DNA of 64,000 nt from contig CALXAV010000003.1 of assembly GCA_944386385.1 (NCBI GenBank), positions 19,376-83,375 of the forward strand, given 5' to 3'. Shown one piece after another: positions 1-14,007 of this stretch; within the stretch, counting starts at the first letter, position 1; every line of letters starts with the position of its first letter. The notes under the pieces were generated by a model that saw only the letters and a list, made by a program, of their open reading frames with translations, made no database searches and was not told the DNA's origin. Source of the stretch: an uncultured Clostridia bacterium. Its GTDB lineage: Bacteria > Bacillota > Clostridia > TANB77 > CAG-508. The translations under genes were made by a program, and so were the position numbers.

Positions 1-82
1 CTATTTCATTATTAATCCTCCAATTTTCAAATGAACTATTAAATCTGTTTGGAATAATTAACTTATTAAATTTAATATTCAC
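1..82 (-). CDS. Hypothetical protein, N-terminal 27 codons only (runs off the left edge)
   Basis: GTG at 80-82 is preceded by GAGGAGG (complement of 89-95). The frame VNIKFNKLIIPNRFNSSFENWRINNEI stays open to position 1. Confidence 0.3.
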   Translation of the reverse strand, partial: MNIKFNKLIIPNRFNSSFENWRINNEI

Positions 83-217
83 TTAATTCCTCCTCGTATA
101 ATTATAAAATAAATTACTTGAATGTTTGTCAAAATATGTAAATTGTTGAAAAAGCAAAATAATTCTGCATTTTTCTGTTTGCATATTATTTTGCTTTTCT
201 TTTGTTATTGATATATG

Positions 218-403
218 TCAGTCATCGCCTTTAATTTCTGTTCCATCATCTAAAATCTTAACTATCTTACTAAAATCTTTTGCACCTATATGAGCATAAT
301 AATTTCCTCCATCAATATAACAAGATTCACATTTACAAGATACTAAATTATGCACACTTTTTGACTCAATTATATCTCCACAAATTAGACATTTAATTTT
401 CAT
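218..403 (-). CDS. Small Cys-rich (zinc-ribbon-like) protein, 61 aa
   Basis: I trimmed the track ORF 218-511 to the ATG at 401-403, which has AGGAG 8 nt upstream. The protein MKIKCLICGD...SCKCESC has CxxC plus CxCxxC. It is divergent from the methyltransferase gene. Confidence 0.5.
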   Translation of the reverse strand: MKIKCLICGDIIESKSVHNLVSCKCESCYIDGGNYYAHIGAKDFSKIVKILDDGTEIKGDD

Positions 404-514
404 ATTTGGTCTCCTATTCAAAATAATATATACAAATATATCATATTTTTCATAAATTTTCCAGATGTTAGTAAACTTTTCAACAAATTTCCACAATATT
501 TTTAGTCGCAACTA

Positions 515-589
515 TTGCTTTTTTTTCTATTTAGTTATATAATATTTCCAGTCGCAGAGTTTGCATTTTTTATTTAACTCTGTTATAAT
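515..589 (+). promoter_or_regulatory. Two tandem sigma-A-type promoters upstream of the methyltransferase gene, each preceded by an AGTCGCA box
   Basis: P1 is TTGCTT(515-520)-17 nt-TATAAT(538-543). P2 is TTGCAT(561-566)-17 nt-TATAAT(584-589) with TG at 581-582. The boxes AGTCGCAactaTTGC (504-518) and AGTCGCAgagtTTGC (550-564) overlap the -35 elements. Confidence 0.5.
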
Positions 590-616
590 AAAAACATCTA
601 GGGAGGTTCAGATAAA

Positions 617-1843
617 ATGAGTAATTTTAAAGTAGTTTCACTTTTTTCAGGTGCAGGTGGAATGGATCTTGGATTTGAAAAAGCTGGATTTGATATAGTA
701 TGGGCTAATGATTTTTTCAAAGAAGCCGTTGAATCTTATAAGAAGAATGTAAGCCAAAATATAGTATATGGTGATATAACAAAAATAGATAGTTCAGAAA
801 TTCCAGATGATGTAGATTTAGTTATTGGTGGCTTTCCTTGTCAAGGTTTTTCAGTAGCAAATACTAAAAGAAGTATGAAAGACAAAAGGAATTTCTTATA
901 TAAAGAAATGCTACGAATAATAAAAGATAAAAATCCAAAGTTTTTTGTTGCTGAAAATGTAAAAGGATTATTATCTATGGAAAAAGGCAAAGTATTTGAA
1001 ATGATAAAAAAAGATTTTGAATCCCTTGGTTACAAAGTAGATGCCAAATTATTAAATGCTGCTGAATATGGAGTTCCTCAGGCGAGAGAAAGACTTGTTA
1101 TTATAGGAAATAGGTTAGGGATTGATAATCCTTTTCCTACTCCTACTAATTGGGTAGATACTAAACAATATAAATCAAAAAAAGGATTAAAAGATCCTGT
1201 TACTGTAGAACAAACCATAGGATTTTTAAGCAATGTAAAACTTAGTACTTCGCCTATCACACTATCTAATGGTACAAAAATATATAATCATATTGCAGCT
1301 ACAAATGTATATGATAAATTTTGGGGTAGAAAATATGAAGTAAATCAAGCTGATATTTGTGATTACTTAAGATATTGGAGAGATAAATCAGGATATTCAA
1401 CCAAAAAGGTAGACGAGCATTTCGGATATAAATATACAGCTGGTCATTGGTTTAGAAAAGATAATCATTCAGGAAGCATACCAAAGCCTTCTGACTGGTG
1501 GGAATTAAAGAAAATGTTTAAGTTTGATGATACATATGATAAACAAGTTACTACAATGGTAGAAAAAGAAATCAAATTTGAACAATCTTTAAGAATTACT
1601 AATTGGGATAGACCAAGTGACACAATAACAGCTACTAGCCCTGAAATACATGTTAACAAAGAAAGAAGATTAAGTGCTAGAGAATGTGCTATGCTACAAA
1701 CTTTTCCTATGGACTACCAATTTGTTGGAAGTTTAAATACTATTTATAGACAAATCGGTAATGCTGTTCCTGTAAAATTAGCAGAGCAGATTGCTTCTGG
1801 GATATATGAGGCTTTAGAAAAAAATCAAAAAACAGGCAAATAA
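617..1843 (+). CDS. DNA (cytosine-5)-methyltransferase (type II R-M modification subunit)
   Basis: C5-MTase motifs appear in the canonical order: FSGAGG (I), GGFPCQGFS (IV), ENVKGL (VI), QARERL (VIII), GNAVPV (X). RBS GGGAGG lies upstream. Confidence 0.92.
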   Translation: MSNFKVVSLFSGAGGMDLGFEKAGFDIVWANDFFKEAVESYKKNVSQNIVYGDITKIDSSEIPDDVDLVIGGFPCQGFSVANTKRSMKDKRNFLYKEMLRIIKDKNPKFFVAENVKGLLSMEKGKVFEMIKKDFESLGYKVDAKLLNAAEYGVPQARERLVIIGNRLGIDNPFPTPTNWVDTKQYKSKKGLKDPVTVEQTIGFLSNVKLSTSPITLSNGTKIYNHIAATNVYDKFWGRKYEVNQADICDYLRYWRDKSGYSTKKVDEHFGYKYTAGHWFRKDNHSGSIPKPSDWWELKKMFKFDDTYDKQVTTMVEKEIKFEQSLRITNWDRPSDTITATSPEIHVNKERRLSARECAMLQTFPMDYQFVGSLNTIYRQIGNAVPVKLAEQIASGIYEALEKNQKTGK

Positions 1844-1863
1844 TCACCTGTTTTTTTGATTTT
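1821..1863. terminator. Bidirectional hairpin between the convergent MTase and putative REase genes
   Basis: Inverted repeat AAAATCAAAAAACAGG / CCTGTTTTTTTGATTTT, flanked by A/T runs on both strands. Confidence 0.5.
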
Positions 1864-1864
1864 T

Positions 1865-2896
1865 TTACTTTTTTTCTCCCCAAGAAATTAATGAATCATA
1901 AATTTTAAAATACTTGTGTTCTCCACACCATTTTTCATTTTTTGAATTATATCTTTTTTCTAACCATTCATCATTAAATCTAGCTGTATTTCCAAATTTT
2001 ACAGCCTGCAAATAAATATCCCAATGTTTTCCTTTTTTCTTTGGAACTACATACCAGACTATATTCTTTTCTTTATCATAGTATCCAACTTTAGTTTTAC
2101 TTTCTATTCTCTCCCAATCTCTAGGTATATCTGTTACCTGTTCCATTCTTGAAAATTTATTTATTTTAGACAAATTTTTAAATTCATCTAAAGATGTTAT
2201 ATATTTAGGTTTATAGTATATTCCATCATGTTCATCAAAATACACATAATCTTTAAAATTCAAAAACAAGTCGTTATCAAATAAATTACTTAAAACTCCA
2301 TTAGGTAAACATGTTACTACAATGCTTGGTAAATCATCTTCATTTATTAACTTAAATATTCCTCTTCCATCATCAGAATATCCTATCTTTACCAAATATG
2401 TTAATAACGGTTTTTGTGATTTTGAATCAATTGCTTGTAAATTTGATTTTACTTTAAATCCTGGAAAAGATCCAGCACTTAAAACGGGATTATTTAGAAA
2501 TGAAGTTTGATTATGTTCAAATTGTGTTGAGGATAATTCTCCTTTATTTCCGATTTTATCTATTGTCTTAACATCTATATTCAAAATTATATCTTCTAAT
2601 TCTAATGCAATATCACAACTTATAGGTGATGCATAAAACTTTGTAGCATTTGGAAAAGACGTATACATATGATGTCTTAATAATCTCTCTGATGCTTCTT
2701 TTATTTTATTCTTTTTTCCCCATACTTCTTGTAAAAGTTCATAATATTCTTGTGTTTCTTCTTCTATATGCTTTAAATCTGTTAAAAATATTGGAGACGT
2801 TACAATATTTTCAATAATGTGCATATATTTTTCTTCCAAATCTAGTATTTGATTTTGAATTTTTGTTCTTTCATATTCTATATTTTGTTCAGACAT
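1865..2896 (-). CDS. Putative type II restriction endonuclease (context-based)
   Basis: 343-aa ORF convergent with, and 21 nt from, the C5-MTase. It has a possible PD-(D/E)XK-like string, SCDIALELEDIILNIDVK. I recognise no family. Confidence 0.4.
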   Translation of the reverse strand: MSEQNIEYERTKIQNQILDLEEKYMHIIENIVTSPIFLTDLKHIEEETQEYYELLQEVWGKKNKIKEASERLLRHHMYTSFPNATKFYASPISCDIALELEDIILNIDVKTIDKIGNKGELSSTQFEHNQTSFLNNPVLSAGSFPGFKVKSNLQAIDSKSQKPLLTYLVKIGYSDDGRGIFKLINEDDLPSIVVTCLPNGVLSNLFDNDLFLNFKDYVYFDEHDGIYYKPKYITSLDEFKNLSKINKFSRMEQVTDIPRDWERIESKTKVGYYDKEKNIVWYVVPKKKGKHWDIYLQAVKFGNTARFNDEWLEKRYNSKNEKWCGEHKYFKIYDSLISWGEKK

Positions 2897-3012
2897 ACTA
2901 TCTTCCCCCTATGTCCATAATATAACATATATTTATGTTTTAAACAATATAATTTTGAAATTTGTGTCGAATCTTCTAGTTTTTATAGTCTTTCTTTTTC
3001 TAAATTTAATTT

Positions 3013-3645
3013 TTAATTTTTCCAAAAAAATTCATCATAAATATATCCTTTTTCTATATACAACTCTGTTAGCTTCATTTTATATTTTTCTAATAACTCT
3101 AAATACTTTTTCTTAAAAACATTTTTACATAACCATTCAACACCTTTACTAGAAATCACAACTTTGCCATTAATTAAAAATTTATATTGTTCAAATCCAC
3201 TATCACACATTTTCTTAATTGCTTTTCTAATTGTTATTTCTTTTCTATCAAAATATTTGCATAGTTGTTTTATATCCATATCTTCATTCCACCAATTTTT
3301 ATTTTTCTCTACTTTTAATAATTCTTCATATTGTTTTATTCTATCTTCAAAAAAATCTGTATCTGCATCAATTAATGATTTTTCTTTTTGAAAATATACA
3401 TTTAATAACCAATAATATCCTTCTATCAAAATAAAATATTTTCTGCTTCTTATTTTCTCACTTCTCCATCTACAAGTTGGATGCTTTTCTAACATAACAT
3501 CTATTGCTTTTCTTAAATCTAATTCTGTTATTTCTTTACCTTGTTTGGTAGTTAATCCAAGCAAATGTAATTTCTTTAATATTTTATCGTATGATAAGAA
3601 AACACTATCTAATGCTTGTTCCGAATTTACATACATTTTTCTCAC
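3013..3645 (-). CDS. Hypothetical island protein (210 aa)
   Basis: Long ORF in the same orientation as the replication module. I recognise no motif. Confidence 0.45.
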   Translation of the reverse strand: MRKMYVNSEQALDSVFLSYDKILKKLHLLGLTTKQGKEITELDLRKAIDVMLEKHPTCRWRSEKIRSRKYFILIEGYYWLLNVYFQKEKSLIDADTDFFEDRIKQYEELLKVEKNKNWWNEDMDIKQLCKYFDRKEITIRKAIKKMCDSGFEQYKFLINGKVVISSKGVEWLCKNVFKKKYLELLEKYKMKLTELYIEKGYIYDEFFWKN

Positions 3646-3949
3646 TTCCTATATATAAAAATTTCTTAATGCTAGTTTACTTAGCATTAAGAATTTGCAA
3701 AATAAATTTTGCACGAATATTGGGTAGTATTTTTTAGTACCTAATATTCGCCAGCTTGGTGTATTGACACCGTTTTCGCTGTTTAGGGCAAAATGCCCTA
3801 AAACCTTTTTTGCTCTCCGAGGAATATTTTTTATATCAATTTTCTTCTTTTGTATTAAAAAAATTCTAAAATATTTAAATTTTTTAGTTTAAAATATTCT
3901 TTACTTTTGTTTATAAATATTTTATAATAATTTTAGTTTTTGGATTAAG

Positions 3950-4798
3950 TTAGTATTTAGTTTGGTCGCTTATACTAGCTTTTTCTTTTTCATTTTGATC
4001 ATACTTTTTTAGCTCAATTCCATAACAAAATTGATACAATTTTTGAATAACAGCTTCTGATAATTCTTCGTCTTCACTTTGATAAAATCTATCTAGTAAG
4101 CTTTCTTTGTTAAATCTAGTTGTTACTATAATTGGTAATTTATTTTCATTTCTATTTTCTATAATTGTATATAATTTTTCTAATGCCCAACTACTAATTT
4201 TTTCTGTTCCCAAATCATCAATTATAAGCATATCAACTTTAGAATATAATTCTATTATGTCTTTTTCTTTGCTTGAGAAATCTTTAAAAGTATCCTTAAT
4301 TACATCTAACAATAAAATCAATCTTCCCATTAAAACTAACATATCTTTTTCTGTAAGTTTATTTAAAATAGCTGTTGCTAAATGTGTTTTACCTACGCCA
4401 GATTTTCCTGTAATAATAAGCCCATTTTTTTGAATTTTATTAATACATTTTTCTGTAAAATCTTTTGCAATCTCTACTTCTTTCTTATTAGTTTCTGTTA
4501 TTATAAAGTTATCAAATTGATAATCTTGTATTTGCTTGCTAATATAATTTTGTATATAAAATTGCCTTGTCATTTGCTCAAATCGTTTCCTTTTCTTTTG
4601 TCCTTCTTCTTTTAAATCTACTTCTTCCCAATAATCCTTTGACTGTTTACAATCGCATCTTTCATATTCTATTGAACTTAATGGTATATTTGCATATAAA
4701 TAATCTAAGCCTATTGGTTTTAAATCTTTTCCACAAAATTTGCATTTATTGTGGAAAATCTCCTCTTTAGAATTACATTTCATATTTTCTAAATCCAT
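3950..4798 (-). CDS. DnaC/IstB-like AAA+ helicase-loader protein with an N-terminal Cys cluster
   Basis: Walker A is GKSGVGKTHLATAI and Walker B is LIIDDLGTE. The N-terminus carries CKFCGK...CDC. It overlaps the upstream organizer gene by 26 nt. Confidence 0.8.
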   Translation of the reverse strand: MDLENMKCNSKEEIFHNKCKFCGKDLKPIGLDYLYANIPLSSIEYERCDCKQSKDYWEEVDLKEEGQKKRKRFEQMTRQFYIQNYISKQIQDYQFDNFIITETNKKEVEIAKDFTEKCINKIQKNGLIITGKSGVGKTHLATAILNKLTEKDMLVLMGRLILLLDVIKDTFKDFSSKEKDIIELYSKVDMLIIDDLGTEKISSWALEKLYTIIENRNENKLPIIVTTRFNKESLLDRFYQSEDEELSEAVIQKLYQFCYGIELKKYDQNEKEKASISDQTKY

Positions 4799-5285
4799 TT
4801 GTGTTCTCTTCTTCCTTTCTTATTTCTTTTCTTTTATTTTCTTTATTCTCTTCTTCTTTGTTACATAACGTTACTGTAACGTTACTTTTCCCATTTTCAT
4901 TTTTCAACTTTTCACGATATCTCTGTTGTCTTAATCTTCCTTGTTCTTTGTATTTTTCATATGTTTCAATACTTTGATATTTATTCCAATTTTTAATCTT
5001 GTAAACTTCATTTTCTAGAATAATCATTTCTAATTCTAAAAATTTTTCAATTATTTCTTCCATTTTCTCAAAAGACTTTCCCATAATCTTTGAAAAATAT
5101 TCAATTGTCATTGGTTTATTCTCACCTATTACTAAATTGCCTTCTTTATTACATTCCATAGCAATAATTAATAATTGTATCCAAACTCTGATATATGTAT
5201 CTCCATCCGGCTCTTTAAGTAATATTTGAATTTTCCTATTTGCAAATAAATTTGCATCAATTTTTAACCATTGTAGCTTATACAT
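4773..5285 (-). CDS. Phage replisome-organizer-like protein (N-terminal domain type)
   Basis: The N-terminus MYKLQWLKIDANLFANRKIQILL...YIRVWIQLL resembles the phage replisome organizer N-terminal family. It sits immediately upstream of the DnaC-like gene. Confidence 0.6.
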   Translation of the reverse strand: MYKLQWLKIDANLFANRKIQILLKEPDGDTYIRVWIQLLIIAMECNKEGNLVIGENKPMTIEYFSKIMGKSFEKMEEIIEKFLELEMIILENEVYKIKNWNKYQSIETYEKYKEQGRLRQQRYREKLKNENGKSNVTVTLCNKEEENKENKRKEIRKEEENTNGFRKYEM

Positions 5286-5313
5286 TGCCTCCTTTCCTCT
5301 CTTTCTTCAAAAT

Positions 5314-5511
5314 TTAAAGCATAGATTGTAATTCCATATTTCTTAAATATTCATCTAGTGCTTGTACTCTAAATAAATATTTTCCACCCACTTTACAATA
5401 TGGTATTTGTTTTTTCCTTACCAGTTGATTTATTAACCAATATGAAATACCTAAATACTCTGATGCTTCTTTCATCGTCAATGTTGTTCTTTGAACTTGA
5501 TTATTCATCAT
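5314..5511 (-). CDS. Excisionase-family helix-turn-helix DNA-binding protein
   Basis: 65 aa. LTMKEASEYLGISYWLINQLVRKKQIPYCKVGGKYLFRVQALDEYL matches the excisionase/MerR-type HTH pattern. Confidence 0.75.
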   Translation of the reverse strand: MMNNQVQRTTLTMKEASEYLGISYWLINQLVRKKQIPYCKVGGKYLFRVQALDEYLRNMELQSML

Positions 5512-5684
5512 AATGCTACCTCCTCTCTTTGGAATTTAGAAGATCCTTCTCTCCCCTTCTACTATAAAGCCCATATCAACTGTTAAAAACTGAGCTATTT
5601 TTTAAAATTTTTTAATTTTTTTATTTTATTTTCTTCTTTTATAGTGTTTTCAATAGTTATATGGTTTTTGATTTGTAATTTTTA

Positions 5685-5713
5685 TTGCATTTTTCACTAT
5701 ATTTTTGTATAAT
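5685..5713 (+). promoter_or_regulatory. Sigma-A-type promoter for the 5780 ORF
   Basis: TTGCAT(5685-5690)-17 nt-TATAAT(5708-5713). Confidence 0.5.
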
Positions 5714-5779
5714 TAAGATACTTTGTTAGCAATTTTATTTTGTAAAATATATTGCAATTTGTGTTTTTGAGGTGTTTAC

Positions 5780-6871
5780 ATGTTAAGAAAAGATAATATT
5801 CCAGTAAAAGATTGGTTTAATATTTGGTTCAATAGAGAAAAAAGAAAAGAGTTTTATACAACTTCTATTTCTTTGTATAAAACTACTTTTAATCATGATA
5901 AAGGTAATAGATTCTCAAATATACTTTTTAACGATTCTAAAAACGATAAAGAGATTTATTTTTCTTCAGCCACTTTATTAGAGCCTTTTGAAGAAAGTTA
6001 TGGAACTTTTTTAATAAAATTTCTTAATGCAAATTTTGCATCTTTTGAAACATCTTATCGTACTTTCTTCTGTTTTTATGGATTTTCTATTTTAAGTGAA
6101 TTTTATGCTTCAATTCCTTCATTAAAGTTTTTTAAAACAGAAGATGAATTTATAGAAACTTATCAACCAATTTTTAATAAAGTTAAATCTAAGTTAAAGA
6201 AATTACAATATTTGATAAAACAATGCGTAGACTATATGTATAATTTAAATAATAATTCAATAGATAAGAATTATACACCTTTAGAAAAGTATCTTTCTTA
6301 TTCTATTTTTAATAACTTATTTAAATATTCTACAAACATAGAAGTATATTATTATCAACAATTTGCACATGATATATACCATATATCTTCACAATCTATA
6401 ACACCTAAAATTGTTAGAGAACATTTAGAAAATAGAATAATAGATATAGGTGATAGTCCAGTTTTTCATACATCATATTTATCAAATGTACTGTATATTT
6501 CTTTATTTGAAATAGCTTCTAATACAAATATAAGAATTAAAGTTTGTAAGAACTGTAGTAAATATTTTATCCCATTAAAAAATACTGAAAAATATTGTGA
6601 TATTGTATATTTCGAAAATGAATTATCTTGTAAAAATGTTGGTGCTAATAACTCTTATTACAAAAAGAGAAATACTATTGAAGGAATTAAATTTTATAGA
6701 AATAATTATCAAAGAAGATTAATGCAAGTCAAAAGATCCAATGATGAACAAGTTAAAATAGCATTTGATAATTGGAAAAAACTTGCCAAAGAAAAAATTA
6801 AAGAATTTAATAATAATAAAATTTCAGAGAAAGAATTACTTGAATGGATGAAAGAAAATAAAAATATATAA
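5780..6871 (+). CDS. Hypothetical protein with a C-terminal Cys4 zinc-ribbon-like motif (363 aa)
   Basis: Contains CKNCSKYF...YCD...SCKNVG (CxxC-x13-C-x11-C). RBS GAGGTG lies upstream. It is convergent with the HEPN operon. Confidence 0.5.
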   Translation: MLRKDNIPVKDWFNIWFNREKRKEFYTTSISLYKTTFNHDKGNRFSNILFNDSKNDKEIYFSSATLLEPFEESYGTFLIKFLNANFASFETSYRTFFCFYGFSILSEFYASIPSLKFFKTEDEFIETYQPIFNKVKSKLKKLQYLIKQCVDYMYNLNNNSIDKNYTPLEKYLSYSIFNNLFKYSTNIEVYYYQQFAHDIYHISSQSITPKIVREHLENRIIDIGDSPVFHTSYLSNVLYISLFEIASNTNIRIKVCKNCSKYFIPLKNTEKYCDIVYFENELSCKNVGANNSYYKKRNTIEGIKFYRNNYQRRLMQVKRSNDEQVKIAFDNWKKLAKEKIKEFNNNKISEKELLEWMKENKNI

Positions 6872-6902
6872 AATAGAAGGATAAAAAAGTGAAATTACTT
6901 TC

Positions 6903-8558
6903 TTATCCTCTCTTATATTGTTCACTATCATTAATACATAAGTCATCATTAATTTTTATTATTAATAATATAAATAATTTCAAAAAAATCATATAATTAT
7001 ATTTATGTATTTCTTCTGAACTATCGTTACTTGGCTGTGTTCCATGTATATATCTATTTCTTAAATCTAAGCCATTATTAAATTCAGCTTTGTTTAAATA
7101 ATAATTAAAATAATCAGCTTCTGGTCGTGACAACAAACTACTTTCTGCACAAAGTATTCCATCACTAATAAGTTCATCCATTACTTTTCTATATTCTTCA
7201 GAATATTTCCAGTAACTAATCACTTCATTTTTATACAAATCTTTAAATATATTTACAACCTTTTTTTTATTTATCTTTAAGTATCCATATTCATCTTCTA
7301 TAATATAATCTTTTTCTATTAAGTAATTTATTTCCACTTCAGCATAAGTGGCATAATCTTCTTTTTTAATCTTTTCATTATTAATTAAATCAAAGAAAGA
7401 ACTATATCTTTTTTCAATTCTTTTTATATAATGTAAAATACATTGATCTGAGAAAAAATAGAATTCCATTAATTTATATTCTTCTGAATTTGCATATATA
7501 TATTTATTTTTTATTATACTTTTAATATCTTTGAATTGTATAGGATTTGATGATATTTCTATTAACTCATGGTCTATTTGTCCATCTTCAACAATTAATT
7601 GATACTCCTTTAATATATGATCCATTTCAGACAATATAGTTCTACATTTCTCGAGAGTAGATGAATTTTTTGAAGGTATTGAAATACGATAATCATTAAT
7701 ATTAAACTCCTTAAATAGATATTCCTTAAAGAACCATTCTATAATACTTTCTAATCTAATATCTAAAGAATTCAATCTTTCACTATATGATATAATCTGT
7801 AAATTAGATAACATTTCTAATGTATCAAATGTTGTCCCCTTTTTGTATGCATTTTTTGAACTTATAGACAAAAACCTCTCAAATAATCCTAAATTACATT
7901 TTTTGTTTGTAAGACCAATCCTCATCTGCATATCTACATATCCAAAAAGGTATATAAAATTATTTAATAATGTAGGATAGTCTTGGTTCTCTTTAATCCA
8001 ATTAAAATCATAGATACATTTAATATCTCTTCCACTACCTTCTATTATGACTTCCTGTTCTAATCTTTTTTCAGAAAATACTACTGTTCTTTTCATTTCT
8101 ATGCCATCACTATTCTGAAAAAATTTTTCTGTTTGTTCCTTTATTTTTTTCTTAGTTAATAACCTTGTTTTATCACTTATTTCTAATTCATTCTTTTTAC
8201 TTTGAATATTCTCAATTATTCTTAAATAATTTAAATTAGCTTCTTTACTGTTTATATACTTGATAATTAAAATTTCTTTATCTGTAATAGTAAACTCCTT
8301 TGGTAAATAAATTTGCTTATTTTCTCCCTCTATTTCATATTTATCCAATAATATTGTAGCATTTTCAGGGTATTCTAATAATTTATTTCTTATTAAATTA
8401 CCAAATTTATTTACAATTTTTTTATTTGGTAGTACATGATGTAAAATATATCTGTCTTTTATTAATTTTTGAAATACCTTTTCTGATATTCTTTCAAAAA
8501 CATTGTATTTTTCTATAACTTCAAAAAAATCATCATAATATTGATAGTTCTTTTCCAT
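6903..8558 (-). CDS. HEPN-motif protein (551 aa), third gene of the island operon
   Basis: The C-terminal LDLRNRYIHGTQ contains R-x4-H. I back-checked the codons on the DNA: AGA AAT AGA TAT ATA CAT at 7061->7044. The N-terminal ~490 aa is unrecognised. Confidence 0.55.
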   Translation of the reverse strand: MEKNYQYYDDFFEVIEKYNVFERISEKVFQKLIKDRYILHHVLPNKKIVNKFGNLIRNKLLEYPENATILLDKYEIEGENKQIYLPKEFTITDKEILIIKYINSKEANLNYLRIIENIQSKKNELEISDKTRLLTKKKIKEQTEKFFQNSDGIEMKRTVVFSEKRLEQEVIIEGSGRDIKCIYDFNWIKENQDYPTLLNNFIYLFGYVDMQMRIGLTNKKCNLGLFERFLSISSKNAYKKGTTFDTLEMLSNLQIISYSERLNSLDIRLESIIEWFFKEYLFKEFNINDYRISIPSKNSSTLEKCRTILSEMDHILKEYQLIVEDGQIDHELIEISSNPIQFKDIKSIIKNKYIYANSEEYKLMEFYFFSDQCILHYIKRIEKRYSSFFDLINNEKIKKEDYATYAEVEINYLIEKDYIIEDEYGYLKINKKKVVNIFKDLYKNEVISYWKYSEEYRKVMDELISDGILCAESSLLSRPEADYFNYYLNKAEFNNGLDLRNRYIHGTQPSNDSSEEIHKYNYMIFLKLFILLIIKINDDLCINDSEQYKRG

Positions 8559-8847
8559 TCCGTAAGAAAATCTTTTCTATATTACTATTATCAATGTTAC
8601 TTAAATATACTCCAATAGATTTATTCATTTTTTTGCATACATTCTTTATTTTTTCTATTTCTATATCAGTCCACTTTTTCAAATAACATTCATTATCATT
8701 ATATAATGATATATTATAAAATTCTATTATATCATTAATATTATAATTTTTTCTATTTTCATCATAATTATTAACTATTTCATATAATTTTTCCAAATTA
8801 TAACTACATCCTAAATCTGATTTTGAATAAAACTTAATTCTTTCCAT
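8533..8847 (-). CDS. Small hypothetical protein (104 aa), middle gene of the operon
   Basis: This ORF overlaps the start of the 551-aa gene by 26 nt. It could be a separate gene or a frameshifted N-terminal extension of that gene. Confidence 0.4.
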   Translation of the reverse strand: MERIKFYSKSDLGCSYNLEKLYEIVNNYDENRKNYNINDIIEFYNISLYNDNECYLKKWTDIEIEKIKNVCKKMNKSIGVYLSNIDNSNIEKIFLRNGKELSIL

Positions 8848-8866
8848 AGCTTCTCCTCAAATAAAA

Positions 8867-9967
8867 TTATTTAAAGTAAATTGAACTTTTATCATCATTT
8901 TTAAATTTTATCATATCATTTTTTGACTTCAATAATGCCATAACTAAATTCTTAGCAATTTCATCTAACATGATTGCTGCATTTCCAATAACCCAATGGT
9001 TTTCAGTAAATTCAAAATAATCTAATTCATAGTCTTTCATAAAAATTCTCTTATACTTTTGTATTTCTTTTTCATAATTCTTAAAATCTCCATGAACTAG
9101 CTTTGATCTAATATCATATATACTGCATGCAAATTTTTCCATATTATTTTTTATAATATCATAATCTCCATTATAAAAATACTTTAGCTTTTTCTTTAAT
9201 TGATTTCTTATAGAATCTTTTGGATTAACTAATATCATTTCTATTATGTAAAATGGCGATAAGAAATGTTGGTAATGACTTGTTTGTTCTATTAAATGAT
9301 CCATAATAAAATCTAGTTTATAAAAATCAGATTTTTCTTCTATATAACTATCTATAGCACTTTTAAAATTAAATATTTCTTCTTTATTGTTTTTTACATC
9401 TTCATCATTATTTTGGGACTTATATATGGAAAAATTCCCATTCTTTTGAATTTTTAACTCCAGTCCTGATAAAATATGTAAAAAGCTATTTGTCCCAAAT
9501 AAAGAATCTCTTTCATCATCATGTAATATTCCTGTAAAGTTTTTTTCACTCATACTTGGTAACCAATTTTGTAGCATTGATATTTTGTGTTCTAATGAAT
9601 ATTCATCTATTTGCTCAGAATGTAATCTTTTTTCATCAAACTCATCATAAATAGTTCCTTCTATATCAAATTGTACTAACATTACAATTTTATTTAAAAT
9701 CTCATTAATACAATCTTTTTCATCACTCTTACTACTTATATTAAACATTCCATTCCAATATGAATCCATTAATATTTTCTTTATATCATACTCTTTCTTT
9801 TCCCATTTTCTAGAATGTTTTTTCTCTTGAGAAAGATTTTTATATAACATTTTTTTAATTCTTCCATAATATCCATCTCTTTTTAAAGGATTAACTAAAT
9901 ATAAACCTAATTTTTCACTTAGACAAATCGGTTCATTAATTTCACAAAACATATTATAAATAACCAT
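8867..9967 (-). CDS. HEPN-motif protein (366 aa from ATG 9967), first gene of the island operon
   Basis: The C-terminal region IYDIRSKLVHGDF contains R-x4-H. The codons AGA TCA AAG CTA GTT CAT at 9109->9092 were verified. I preferred ATG 9967 with GAAGGA upstream over the TTG at 9985. Confidence 0.55.
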   Translation of the reverse strand: MVIYNMFCEINEPICLSEKLGLYLVNPLKRDGYYGRIKKMLYKNLSQEKKHSRKWEKKEYDIKKILMDSYWNGMFNISSKSDEKDCINEILNKIVMLVQFDIEGTIYDEFDEKRLHSEQIDEYSLEHKISMLQNWLPSMSEKNFTGILHDDERDSLFGTNSFLHILSGLELKIQKNGNFSIYKSQNNDEDVKNNKEEIFNFKSAIDSYIEEKSDFYKLDFIMDHLIEQTSHYQHFLSPFYIIEMILVNPKDSIRNQLKKKLKYFYNGDYDIIKNNMEKFACSIYDIRSKLVHGDFKNYEKEIQKYKRIFMKDYELDYFEFTENHWVIGNAAIMLDEIAKNLVMALLKSKNDMIKFKNDDKSSIYFK

Positions 9968-10213
9968 TATATTTCCTTCTTTCAAAATAATTATAGCATC
10001 CTTTCTTATTTTATTCTACATTTTTAGCTTATTTATATTACATTTCATCCAGTATTTTTATGTTTTTTATATATTCTTTTATGAATTTTATTGCAATCTT
10101 TGAAAGTATCTAAAAATAAGCAAAAATAGCTGGTAATTTATCAAAAAATACTATATAATACACACAAATACTCTCCCTTCCATAGTTATACTTGAAAGGA
10201 GGTGAAATAAGTA

Positions 10214-11407
10214 ATGGCTGGGAGTATAGAAAAAAGAGGAAAAAATAGTTACAGGTTAACGGTATCAGAAGGATTTGACCTAAACGGAAAACCAATGATA
10301 CACAGAAAGACTATTCATGGAACTAAAAAAGAAGCAGAAGTTGAATTAGCCAAATTTGTTACTGAAGTACAAAATGGTTTAGTCATAGATGGTAAATCTC
10401 TTAAATTTTCTGAATTTGTTGAAGTATGGAAAAGAGATTATGGCTCAAAAGAATTAGCTCCTACAACATACAAACGATATTGTAGAATGTTAGAAACAAG
10501 AATTTTACCATATTTCGGACATTTCTATATTAACAAAATCAGACCAACTGACATTATGAAATTCTATGATTTGCTTGAAAAAGATACTCAACTAGTTAGA
10601 AAAAAAGGTAACAATGGTTCAAAAACTAAAAAGCCTTTATCTGGCAAAACTATTTTAGAACATCACAGATTATTAAGAGCAATGCTCCATAGAGCAGTTT
10701 ACTGGCAATTAATTGTAAGTAATCCTGCTGAGCGTGTTCAACCACCTAGAGCTAAAAAACCTAAAAGAAGATCTTATGATGATGAGCAAACTAAAATATT
10801 ATTAGAAAACTTAGAAAAACTTAATGTAGAAGATACTAAATATAAAGTTGCTATCATCCTTACTATCTTTACAGGTGTTCGTTTAGGTGAATTGATGGGC
10901 TTAGAATGGCAAGATGTTGATTTTAGAAATGGAATTATAAGTATTAACCGTTCTAGTCAATATCTATCAGATATGGGAGTATTTACTAAAGTTCCTAAAA
11001 CAGAAAGCTCCATTAGAGAGATTGCAATACCCGAATTTATCATTTCTTTGCTTGAGGAATATAAGTTATGGTATGAAGATCAAAAATCGCTATATGGCGA
11101 ATTATGGACGAATTCTGATAGGTTATTTGTACAAGCTGATGGCAAACCAATGCATCCTTCTTCTATAAGCAAATGGTTTGTTAAATATGTAGGTACAATA
11201 GGACTACCTGTAATTAATTTTCACGGATTAAGACATACAAATGCAAGTTTACTAGTTGCACAAAATGTTGATATAGCTGTTATTTCTGCAAGACTAGGTC
11301 ATGCACAAATAAGTACAACACTTGACTTTTATGTACATCCACTACTTTCTCATAATAGAAAAGCTGGATATGCACTAGAAAACTTACTATTACCAACAAG
11401 GTCTTAA
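10214..11407 (+). CDS. int: Tyrosine-type site-specific recombinase/integrase
   Basis: N-terminal arm-binding-type region (SIEKRGKNSYRLTVS). Catalytic signatures are TGVRLGEL, HGLRHT and LGHAQISTTLDFYVH. RBS AAAGGAGGTG lies upstream. Confidence 0.92.
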   Translation: MAGSIEKRGKNSYRLTVSEGFDLNGKPMIHRKTIHGTKKEAEVELAKFVTEVQNGLVIDGKSLKFSEFVEVWKRDYGSKELAPTTYKRYCRMLETRILPYFGHFYINKIRPTDIMKFYDLLEKDTQLVRKKGNNGSKTKKPLSGKTILEHHRLLRAMLHRAVYWQLIVSNPAERVQPPRAKKPKRRSYDDEQTKILLENLEKLNVEDTKYKVAIILTIFTGVRLGELMGLEWQDVDFRNGIISINRSSQYLSDMGVFTKVPKTESSIREIAIPEFIISLLEEYKLWYEDQKSLYGELWTNSDRLFVQADGKPMHPSSISKWFVKYVGTIGLPVINFHGLRHTNASLLVAQNVDIAVISARLGHAQISTTLDFYVHPLLSHNRKAGYALENLLLPTRS

Positions 11408-11704
11408 TTTTACTTTTTTCTAATTTTCACAAATTACAAATTTTCACGATATTAAAAAAGTAAAAAACTTTGAGATTTTATATCTCTTTCCCAAAAGTTT
11501 TTTACTTGTAGATTTTTATAAAAATTATAAATTTATAGTAAATTTTTTATTGAATTTTTATTAGAATTTCGGGCATTTGAGGTGGTTATTTTACCCAATT
11601 TTTACCCGATTTGACATAATAGTGTTATTTTCAAGCATTATTGCAACCAGTTTTCAAGCAATAAAAAATCACTAAAATCGTTACAGTTCTAGTGATATAA
11701 ACGT

Positions 11705-11750
11705 TGGTTGCGGGGGTAAGACTCGAACTTACGACCTTCGGGTTATGAGC
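11705..11750 (-). other. Truncated initiator tRNA-fMet (3' 46 nt: anticodon loop to CCA); putative att core
   Basis: The minus strand reads GCTCATAACCCGAAGGTCGTAAGTTCGAGTCTTACCCCCGCAACCA. It has a CAT anticodon loop, the CCC of the initiator-type anticodon stem, a T-arm, the acceptor 3' strand and CCA. No 5' half follows; 11751 onward is AT-rich non-tRNA sequence. Confidence 0.7.
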
Positions 11751-11774
11751 TATAAAATATTTATTATTAAAATT

Positions 11775-12272
11775 TTATCTTTCTTCATCTTCCACGTTTT
11801 TTACTAAAACTGTTCTCATATTGTTTCTTTTTCCTCCATGTACATCGTCAAGTAAATCATTTCCTATAACAAGTACTTTATCTGGTGGTAACTCCATCTT
11901 TTCGCAAGCCTTTCTAAAATTTCTCTTTAATGGTTTTAGAGCAAAACCTATGTAATCTATTCCTCTTTCTCTAAAATACTTTTCTATTTTTTTATCTACG
12001 CCGTTACTCAAAACTATAATTTTAAATTTTCCTCTCAAACTTTCAATCCAATCTTGATTGTACTTTGGGATATTTTTCATTTCTTTTCTTAGAGTATCAT
12101 CAACATCTAGAATTATTCCTTCTATTCCATATTCTTGCTTTATTCTTTCAATTTCATCTTCAGTCAATTCTGTAACTTTATCTATTGTTATATCTGGTTT
12201 TACAATCTTTGATAATACATAGTGTGCTAAGTCAATTATTTTGTCACCTATAATATCTTCTATTCTTCTCAT
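11775..12272 (-). CDS. YqeG-family HAD phosphatase
   Basis: Motifs ILDVDDTL (DxDxT), VLSNG and GNDLLDDVHGG. I preferred ATG 12272 with GGGAGAG upstream; the track ORF starts at GTG 12302. Confidence 0.75.
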   Translation of the reverse strand: MRRIEDIIGDKIIDLAHYVLSKIVKPDITIDKVTELTEDEIERIKQEYGIEGIILDVDDTLRKEMKNIPKYNQDWIESLRGKFKIIVLSNGVDKKIEKYFRERGIDYIGFALKPLKRNFRKACEKMELPPDKVLVIGNDLLDDVHGGKRNNMRTVLVKNVEDEER

Positions 12273-12399
12273 GAACTCTCTCCCGTTGATTATATATTTC
12301 ACAATATTATATCATATTTTCAAAAAATTTCCAGATTAGAAATAAGTAATGTTTAGACTTTTTCTATCGTTTATTGTATTATTAGTATAGGAGTAAAAT

Positions 12400-14007
12400 A
12401 TGGAAGAAGATAAAAAGTTATATAAAGAATTTTTAGATGGAAATAATGAAGCATTTAATAAAATAATTAGTAAATATGAGAAAAATCTTATTTACTTTAT
12501 AACACGATATGTAAAAGATATAGATATAGCACAAGATATTTACCAAGATACGGTAATGTATTTATTAGAACATAAAGAAAAATATGACGATAAGTATTCT
12601 CTAAAAGCTTATCTTTATCTAATTGCTAAATCACGAGCTATAAACTATTTGAACAGTAAGAAAAGAAATGTACCTCTAGAAAATTATGAAAATACTTTGC
12701 AAGAAGAAAAACTTTTAGAAGATATTATCTTTTCTAAAGAAAGACAAAAGAAAATAGAAAAAGTAATTAGAAAGATGAAACCTGAATATCAGTTAGTAAT
12801 TTATTTAACTAAGATAGAAGGGCTATCTTACAAAGAAACTGGAATCATTATGGATAAATCAGAAAAGCAGATAAAAAATTTAGTATTTAATGCTACTAAA
12901 AAATTAAAGAAATTATTAGTACAAGAAAAAATAATTGAAATAAAAAACAATAAAATTATAAGACTACTTTTATGGTTTATAATTATTACAGTTGCTATAT
13001 CTTCATTAACATATGCAGGATTTGTTATCTATGAAAAATATAAAGCAAGTTTAATGCCTACATATACAAATGAATTTGATAATAGTGAAAAAAATAATAT
13101 GTGGATTTGTACCTTTAATCTTGCTTGGAATGAATTCATGGCTCAAAGATTTGGCGGCCCTGTAGAATTTAAAGAAGGTAACTCTGAATTAGTAAATTCT
13201 TTAAATCAAAAAAATTTTACTAAAGACCAATTATCTTCTGATGATTATTATATAAAAGTAGCTGAAACATCTCCCAAATTAAAAGAAGTAATTAAAACTG
13301 ATATACAAAACAAATTTAACATAGACGAAAGCTCTTCATTGGATAAGATTAATTTTAATTTACCAAACAGTTATACAATATACTCTTTCCTATATAAGAA
13401 ATTTACATTTCCAGAACCTTTTGATATACTTCTTCCTGACAAGTTTGCAAACTCAGAAGAAAATGTTAAATACTTTGGAATCGATAGCTCTTCTTCTAAA
13501 GATTTAAGAGACAATGTTGAAGTTTTATTCTATTATGATAATGATAATTTTGCTGTAAAATTAAAAACAGTAAATAATGAAGATGTTATCTTGGCTAGAA
13601 TAGAAAATAGTAATTCTTTTGAAGAAACATATAACAAAATTAAAGAAAAAGAAGCTTCTGAAACTAACCACACTTTTGGAGAATCTGATACATTAAAAAT
13701 ACCAAACTTAATTGTAAATAATTCTATTATCTATGATGAATTATGCTATAAAGAATTAAAACCCAACGCTAATAATATAAATTATATAACTTCTGCTGTC
13801 CAAACAGTTAATTTTACATTAAATAATGAAGGTGGAGAAGTTTTAAGTAACAGTGTTACACAAGATATTTCTAAATCACAAAATCTTATAGAAAGGTCTT
13901 TCAATTTTACAGATGAATTTTTCTTGTTTTTAAAAGAATCAGATAAAGAAAAACCATATTTATCATTAAAAGTAGATAATATAGATTTAATGGAAGAAAC
14001 TAAATAA
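12400..14007 (+). CDS. ECF-type sigma-70 family factor fused to a TM helix and an extracytoplasmic serpin-like domain
   Basis: aa 1-180 carry sigma region 2 (DIAQDIYQDTVMYLL...YLYLIAKSRAINYL) and region 4 (LVIYLTKIEGLSYKETGIIMDKSEKQIKNLVFNATKKLKKLL). The TM helix is aa 187-211. aa 233-527 are collinear with serpin landmarks (see finding). Confidence 0.7.
   Translation: MEEDKKLYKEFLDGNNEAFNKIISKYEKNLIYFITRYVKDIDIAQDIYQDTVMYLLEHKEKYDDKYSLKAYLYLIAKSRAINYLNSKKRNVPLENYENTLQEEKLLEDIIFSKERQKKIEKVIRKMKPEYQLVIYLTKIEGLSYKETGIIMDKSEKQIKNLVFNATKKLKKLLVQEKIIEIKNNKIIRLLLWFIIITVAISSLTYAGFVIYEKYKASLMPTYTNEFDNSEKNNMWICTFNLAWNEFMAQRFGGPVEFKEGNSELVNSLNQKNFTKDQLSSDDYYIKVAETSPKLKEVIKTDIQNKFNIDESSSLDKINFNLPNSYTIYSFLYKKFTFPEPFDILLPDKFANSEENVKYFGIDSSSSKDLRDNVEVLFYYDNDNFAVKLKTVNNEDVILARIENSNSFEETYNKIKEKEASETNHTFGESDTLKIPNLIVNNSIIYDELCYKELKPNANNINYITSAVQTVNFTLNNEGGEVLSNSVTQDISKSQNLIERSFNFTDEFFLFLKESDKEKPYLSLKVDNIDLMEETK

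Follow-up and report, generated by a model that had tools for sequence, protein, structure and literature searches.

The stretch of DNA analysed here (hereafter the window) comprises 64,000 nucleotides from an uncultured Clostridia bacterium (GenBank assembly GCA_944386385.1, contig CALXAV010000003.1, positions 19,376 to 83,375 of the forward strand). Within the cargo slot of an integrase-bearing island, the window carries two minus-strand genes, hereafter designated as gene A and gene B, whose products are candidate antiviral proteins. Gene A (8867..9967) encodes a protein of 366 amino acids, in which an N-terminal alpha/beta domain (residues ~1-180) is followed by an all-helical C-terminal region (residues ~187-356) with an invariant R-x4-H motif. 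Its open reading frame (ORF) is open from a TTG codon (8867..9985), and the ATG at 9967 was taken as the start because all homologues begin with MVIYN. Gene B occupies two overlapping ORFs. Part 1 (8533..8847, 104 amino acids) corresponds to the N-terminal helical domain of the PDC-S56 family and part 2 (6903..8558, 551 amino acids) to the remainder, including a putative HEPN-like domain at the C-terminus. The two parts overlap by 26 nucleotides, the 551-amino-acid frame being +1 relative to the 104-amino-acid frame. The motif of gene A (RSKLVH, 9092..9109, minus strand) has its arginine, R287, encoded at 9107-9109 and its histidine, H292, at 9092-9094, and the motif of gene B (RNRYIH, 7044..7061, minus strand) has R500 at 7059-7061 and H505 at 7044-7046. 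The A-B region has a G+C content of ~21-23%, and the gene pair is divergent from the tyrosine integrase gene (int) of the island. An earlier, sequence-only reading of this DNA had reported three minus-strand ORFs, the codons of both motifs, the 26-nucleotide overlap and the divergence from int, all of which were recovered as reported.

At the end of gene B is a terminator-like element on the minus strand, a hairpin followed by a run of T residues (6877..6910), which is the sole site of this kind between positions 5200 and 10400. This hairpin lies between the 551-amino-acid ORF and a convergent DUF6076 gene, and could terminate transcription from either side.

Gene B, one PDC-S56 gene in two reading frames

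Together, the 104- and 551-amino-acid ORFs make up a member of PDC-S56, a candidate defence family of PADLOC, the shorter one providing its N-terminal part and the longer one its C-terminal part. The shorter ORF matches positions 6-98 of the 649-position profile PDLC05039 (E = 1.5e-25) and the longer one positions 102-645 (E = 9.7e-202), and because consecutive parts of one profile are matched, the two ORFs represent one gene. The sequence-only reading has to be amended here on two points. It had regarded the locus as a three-gene system with two HEPN proteins and a small partner, and the 104-amino-acid ORF turns out to supply the ~95 N-terminal residues of the protein that the 551-amino-acid gene continues. 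It had also been unable to place the genes in any named system, and gene B is PDC-S56, with an E-value of about 1e-201. A role of the 104-amino-acid ORF as an antitoxin or small partner was considered and ruled out by its match with the N-terminus of the PDC-S56 profile. Database searches revealed more than 900 homologues of gene B, most of them 640-667 amino acids long. As a member of this family, the window copy shows a full-length profile match but is encoded by two overlapping ORFs in different frames, and not by a single one. The association of the family with defence systems was also found: one relative (L064) lies in an hsdM/hsdS-hsdR operon, another (L002) is located beside RnlA/RnlB, and the window copy itself occupies a defence hotspot (see below).

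The site of the break can be defined by comparison with L007, an intact relative whose sequence at this point reads ...IEKIF-IEL-EKNYRYY.... The window has ten nucleotides, TTACGGAATG, where L007 has nine. Its junction (8533..8568, minus strand; ...TTC TTA CGG A/ATG GAA AAG...) is translated as IEKIFLRNGKELSIL followed by a stop codon in frame 0 and as ...GMEKNYQYY in frame +1. A CGG codon occupies 8560-8562; part 2 opens with the ATG at 8556-8558, and part 1 closes with the TGA at 8533-8535.

A reading frame that is broken relative to relatives of ~650 amino acids may suggest a pseudogene or an assembly error, and one relative (L063) does exhibit a plain in-frame TAA at the same boundary, although on a single contig only. 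The break in gene B, however, is found in identical form in many independent assemblies. The exact 104-amino-acid product is encoded on 43 contigs, and its 90% cluster (n = 15) is composed nearly entirely of proteins of 104 amino acids. The same 104+551 layout, with a conserved junction, occurs in contigs of other samples that have 89% (L005) and 83% (L006) protein identity with the window. In these lineages, which are 11-17% diverged at the protein level, no additional stops or indels have accumulated, and the pairwise ratio of nonsynonymous to synonymous substitution rates (dN/dS) is 0.15-0.40 for the 104-amino-acid ORF and 0.13-0.18 for the 551-amino-acid ORF (dS 0.12-0.48). Given this recurrence across many independent assemblies and the purifying selection on each half, the split is neither an error nor a dead gene, and we give either explanation almost no credence. 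The overlap, for which coupling or a frameshift had been suggested from the sequence alone, is thus a genuine frame break conserved under selection within one PDC-S56 gene, and not a sequencing error.

PDC-S56 genes have also been split independently. In clade P0114, an N-terminal ORF of 122 or 107 amino acids is joined to one of 525 amino acids by an ATGA overlap, and the break falls between profile positions 117 and 123. The 122 + 525 form is found in L064 (5636-7578), inside a type I restriction-modification (R-M) operon and between hsdM/hsdS and hsdR, and L066 has the same 525-amino-acid part with the shorter, 107-amino-acid N-terminal ORF. In the AlphaFold2 model of the full-length homologue P0012 (predicted local distance difference test score, pLDDT, 90.4), the break is positioned in a short linker that follows a four-helix N-terminal module. 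We conclude that the ~100 N-terminal residues of PDC-S56 can stand as a domain of their own and that the gene is functional when split.

Regarding decoding, the split gene most likely works as two chains produced through translational coupling. Two chains are evidently tolerated, since an ATGA-coupled fission near the same boundary is present in another clade. The geometry is nevertheless odd for coupling, part 2 starting 23 nucleotides upstream of the stop codon of part 1 and having no Shine-Dalgarno sequence. The alternative is a programmed +1 frameshift at TTA-CGG-A, in which the ribosome would stall on CGG and read GGA in the +1 frame. This would yield a full-length protein of ~654 amino acids, identifiable by a peptide that spans the junction, ...IEKIFLGMEKNY... 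(...IFLGMEK...), and might operate as a translation-state switch. CGG is indeed very rare, with 4 of the 18,351 codons in the long ORFs of the window (0.22 per 1000; AGA occurs 512 times, or 27.9 per 1000), and each of the three diverged split variants (window, L005 and L006) has it precisely where the frame changes. The lack of a Shine-Dalgarno sequence before part 2 and the selection acting on both frames also fit a frameshift, and the situation resembles prfB-type +1 frameshifting in that a +1 change of frame is needed and a slow-to-decode codon is found at the junction. In contrast to prfB, the junction has no slippery P-site codon (UUA and UCA are unable to re-pair in the +1 frame), no in-frame stop codon and no upstream Shine-Dalgarno-like stimulator. 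Moreover, part 2 begins with its own ATG in all variants, and in the other clade the gene is simply split by an ATGA overlap close to this domain boundary. A programmed frameshift is consequently a possibility that we entertain with reserve, and plain gene fission accounts for the data at least as well as a prfB-type shift.

Probable HEPN character of the C-terminal domains

The 366-amino-acid product of gene A has no match in Pfam, PADLOC, NCBIfam or PHROGs. Seven close homologues were detected in an index of 5.8 billion proteins, and searching 1.84 billion cluster representatives with a profile brought together a family of 94 relatives, mostly of 340-380 amino acids. Among 53 family members, whose identity to the window protein goes down to 17%, no column other than R287 and H292 is invariant. 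The family consensus of the motif is IRNKIAHGDF, with RN at the position where the window protein has RS (IRSKLVHGDF), and near-invariant residues include S17, N26, E122, D206, K289, G293, D316, E319 and W325. A single R-x4-6-H motif is not beyond chance, at least one being present in 48-56% of the shuffled versions of the window proteins. Because shuffled proteins contain such a motif about half the time, it is its conservation, and not its occurrence, that carries weight.

Pfam scans of the gene A relatives repeatedly returned HEPN families, all below the curated cutoffs. HEPN_Apea was matched by 10 members (best 1.4e-4), RiboL-PSP by five, Swt1 by four, pEK499_p136 and Ribonuc_2-5A by three each, MAE_28990 by one and DUF4145 by four, and little besides HEPN families recurred. 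The last of these families, DUF4145, was also counted as HEPN by Anantharaman et al. (PMC3710099). Stray PADLOC matches of the family were to Cas13b, Csm6 and CARF_HEPN models. The AlphaFold2 model of gene A (pLDDT 91.9; predicted template modelling score, pTM, 0.90) is alpha/beta in its N-terminal domain and entirely helical in its C-terminal half, in which R287 is placed at the C-terminal end of helix 276-291, with H292 just after it and further helices next. Both in this model and in that of P0012, the motif is found at the end of a helix, which is followed by a loop and then by a long helix. The placement of R287 and H292 agrees with the position described for the HEPN motif at helix 3 (PMC3710099). 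Based on these features, the C-terminus of gene A is probably a HEPN domain.

As for gene B, the R, N and H of its DLRNKYxHGTQP motif are invariant in 51 PDC-S56 homologues (R596, N597 and H601 in P0012; R500 and H505 in the window). With the C-terminal domain taken in isolation (~150 last residues), six of 16 members matched HEPN_RiboL-PSP weakly (best E = 0.013, positions 43-186 of 191) and one matched HEPN_Apea. Pfam scans of full-length PDC-S56 members gave no HEPN match, and a protein search with a profile of the C-terminal domain yielded mainly fragments of genes, without revealing any new architecture. No description of PDC-S56 was found in the literature, in the supplements of the PADLOC preprint or in the part of its assignment table that was covered. 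A HEPN domain is also likely, though less so, at the C-terminus of gene B.

Both large proteins had been predicted to contain R-x4-H in a helical C-terminal region, which they do, and the motifs are family-invariant. The HEPN signature attributed to them is reinforced by this invariance and by the recurrent sub-threshold Pfam matches, but several observations weigh against a HEPN assignment. No Pfam HEPN match of the relatives reaches the gathering score, and the proteins of the window themselves give none; NCBIfam and PHROGs scans of these proteins were likewise unrevealing. Foldseek searches, which had been proposed as a check and which were run with whole models only, gave no HEPN match: nothing was significant in the PDB for gene A or P0012 (best E-values of 0.2 and 1.0 for the two models) or in BFVD for gene A. 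The method is insensitive to small helical domains within larger proteins, and we read the gene A result as carrying little information, not as evidence of absence. Searching PDB sequences with the profile of either family brought up nothing relevant. An hhalign comparison of the C-terminal domains of genes A and B paired the two motifs weakly (P = 0.004, probability 8%). As for a defensive role of gene B, PDC-S56 has the status of a candidate in PADLOC (Payne et al., bioRxiv 10.1101/2024.01.29.577857).

Two probable modules in a defence hotspot

The slot that contains genes A and B belongs to a small integrative element of a human-gut bacterium and is bordered on one side by the tyrosine integrase gene (10214..11407, plus strand; Pfam Phage_integrase and Phage_int_SAM_3) and on the other by the DUF6076 gene (5780..6871, plus strand; Pfam DUF6076). 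Integrases at least 90% identical to that of the window were found in 80 human-gut metagenome loci (L070-L149), in 62 of which a DUF6076 gene is located 1.3-6.0 kb from the integrase. These 62 loci have a conserved order (int, cargo, DUF6076, HTH_17, replication) that is shared with L001 and L003. In their interval between int and DUF6076, 35 different arrangements of genes occur; the proteins fall into 67 clusters, and neither A nor B is among them. The cargo types checked with dedicated tools include a ThsA-like SIR2 NADase (E = 3e-12) and an OLD/PtuA-type ABC ATPase with a UvrD-like helicase. Further cargo, as judged by eye, presumably comprises DUF4238, STAND NTPase, cyclase-plus-membrane-effector, nucleotidyltransferase-plus-effector, TIR, caspase-like, KAP NTPase and ABC+HNH types, together with what we take to be other R-x4-H proteins. 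The int/DUF6076 slot is a defence hotspot, and the A+B pair of the window is one of many alternative cassettes. The defence-type cargo slot proposed from this single sequence is thereby borne out by 35 layouts in 62 related islands, and the slot is a rich source of defence genes for further mining.

Whether genes A and B form one system or two can be addressed by comparing the loci that contain them. Since A and B are separable elsewhere, they appear as single-protein modules that are independent of each other and are carried together in one sub-lineage. On balance, the region is probably best regarded as two separate single-protein defence candidates, each combining a sensor with a HEPN ribonuclease, that are stacked in a defence hotspot. 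The two genes are adjacent, in the same order and ~20 nucleotides apart in the window, L006, L001 and L002, with A identities of 61-99% (in L001, A and B have 65% and 69% identity, respectively, and B is intact). Such adjacency in at least four diverged lineages could mean cooperation, and together with the single terminator after B it is what would be expected if A and the split B acted jointly, for instance as sensor and executor or as a hetero-complex with two HEPN domains. Yet an A homologue occurs alone between int and DUF6076 in L003, L007 has an intact B without A, and a PDC-S56 gene is present within 10 kb in none of the 55 genome loci of the wider A family. The numbers of homologues are also far apart, with more than 900 for B versus seven close ones for A, and PADLOC models B as a single-gene candidate. 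In the A family, the commonest neighbour cluster is found in at most 12 of 61 loci. We consequently view a single cooperative system as rather unlikely.

The wider A family is hosted by Bacillota and a few Eggerthellaceae. Its members are found beside integrases, transposases and Tn7-like TnsD/TnsE, and Gabija GajA/GajB lie no more than two genes away in 5 of 44 non-redundant loci. Distant A homologues in L015-L020 and L024 (Enterococcus, Streptococcus and Peptostreptococcus genomes) are carried by what we take, by eye, to be Tn916-like elements, in which they are presumably located between an ArdA-like anti-restriction gene and orf17/VirB4-like genes, with tet(M) downstream. Two genes upstream of these homologues, again as judged by eye, is a further protein of ~259 amino acids with an RHSLAH motif. 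In L002 (192-7510), A-B is preceded by a cold-shock-domain protein, the RnlA/RnlB pair and an unknown 494-amino-acid protein, on a contig with no integrase; this stretch looks like a small defence island. Searches of phage records by tblastn gave no match for gene A or gene B, and gene A had no plasmid match either. For gene B, six matches to plasmids were obtained; in four of them the feature was annotated as hypothetical protein or unannotated, and the remaining two fell in records lacking annotation altogether. Scans of viral contigs for the two families yielded one and two loci only, both families being nearly missing from phage genomes and viral contigs.

According to another interpretation, the HEPN-type proteins serve the mobile element and not phage defence, through post-segregational killing or addiction, inter-element competition or RNA processing. 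Both genes do reside on mobile elements (the integrative island, Tn916-like integrative and conjugative elements, plasmids), and addiction modules frequently contain HEPN toxins (PMC3710099). However, no antitoxin-like partner is conserved beside either gene, their neighbours are defence systems and not maintenance genes, and B homologues occur within type I R-M operons. A function restricted to the element is in our view improbable, and antiviral defence is the reading retained below.

The remainder of the island includes several genes (3013-5511 and 218-511) that encode an HTH_17/excisionase-like protein, a Phage_rep_org_N replication organiser, an IstB/DnaC-like ATPase, an unknown protein of 210 amino acids and a DUF7695 protein. 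Beyond these, the sequence-only reading had placed a restriction-modification module, of which one half stands: the C5 methyltransferase (617-1843) is clearly identified, but the convergent 343-amino-acid ORF (1865-2896, minus strand) has no restriction-enzyme or other match in Pfam or PADLOC. No convincing att-like direct repeats flanking the island were detected within positions 1-12400, and at its far end the island may well extend beyond the window.

Proposed mode of action and related systems

ApeA, which Gao and colleagues are said to have introduced in 2020 as a single-protein HEPN defence system, offers the closest precedent for a mode of action. Genes A and B would be transcribed together, from upstream of position 9967 to the hairpin at 6877-6910. 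In gene A, the N-terminal alpha/beta domain would be the presumed infection sensor and the C-terminal half a HEPN-type ribonuclease with R287 and H292. Each protein might be kept inactive at rest, as ApeA is. Upon phage infection, the non-catalytic domains would sense a cue and the HEPN domains would pair, creating a composite active site; metal-independent cleavage of tRNA or mRNA could then stop translation and result in abortive infection. No antitoxin would take part, and the absence of an MNT antitoxin that had been noted from the sequence holds true. What the data show are the gene identities, the split of gene B and the selection on it, the invariance of the motifs, the separability of A and B and the hotspot setting; the ribonuclease activity, the trigger, the defence phenotype and the decoding of the split are inferred. 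In ApeA itself, a single HEPN protein, a ligand pocket was described in the non-catalytic domains, and the dimerised HEPN domains form a composite site that, once ligand has bound, cleaves the tRNA anticodon loop (bioRxiv 10.64898/2026.01.26.701840).

The gene A family, with proteins of ~350 amino acids, is widespread in mobile elements of Bacillota but not catalogued in Pfam, PADLOC v2, NCBIfam or PHROGs. It is invariant only at the presumed HEPN catalytic pair and recurs beside Gabija and within integrative and conjugative elements, all of which makes it a promising candidate for an abortive-infection system that would consist of one gene and have a new sensor domain. The split PDC-S56 gene, for its part, marks a separable N-terminal domain and provides a natural handle on autoinhibition or sensing. 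A bolder proposal would combine both elements: gene A would found a new antiviral ribonuclease family with an undescribed alpha/beta sensor, and the break in gene B would be a regulatory device, either a CGG-dependent +1 shift or a coupled re-initiation. If true, the break would set the ratio of N-terminal domain to full-length protein, and the HEPN nuclease would be switched on according to the condition of the translation machinery during infection. We consider this combination very unlikely.

Among known systems, gene B is closest to PDC-S56 itself, whose profile it matches end to end and whose relatives in type I R-M operons fit the guilt-by-embedding rationale of that candidate. It differs in being split into two frames, and the HEPN-like C-terminus put forward here on sequence grounds would add to a family that has no assigned domains. 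Gene A has in common with ApeA a single polypeptide in which non-catalytic N-terminal domains precede a C-terminal HEPN domain with R-x4-H (a putative HEPN domain in gene A), as well as the lack of an antitoxin, and HEPN_Apea is the commonest Pfam match among its relatives. In contrast, members of the gene A family have ~350 amino acids, whereas the HEPN region of Ec2ApeA alone runs to residue 583, and the N-terminal domain of gene A includes beta strands, whereas the N and Mid domains of ApeA are all-helical. No gene A member rises above the Pfam cutoff or matches the PADLOC ApeA model, and the N/Mid/HEPN organization that defines ApeA is not found.

Other single-gene proteins with a HEPN motif are likewise encoded on mobile elements or in defence islands. 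These include HEC-08, which combines a DUF3644 HEPN domain with zinc fingers and whose defence is abolished by mutation of the motif histidine, and the lactococcal AbiD/F, AbiJ, AbiU2 and AbiV. The window proteins have no sequence match with any of them and differ in domain order and partner domains. HepT-MntA and RnlA-RnlB/LsoA-LsoB possess the same kind of catalytic motif, and RnlA/RnlB is found just upstream of A-B in L002; unlike in these systems, no MNT or RnlB-type antitoxin accompanies A or B, the 104-amino-acid ORF being a fragment of B. At the level of the island, the closest counterparts are the defence hotspots of phage satellites and prophages, as described in P4 and P2 elements (PMC9122126). 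Although the island of the window is built differently, with a tyrosine integrase, DUF6076, HTH_17, Phage_rep_org_N and a DnaC-like loader in a low-GC gut host, it shares with them a fixed slot beside the integrase of a small integrative element, in which many alternative defence cassettes are found.

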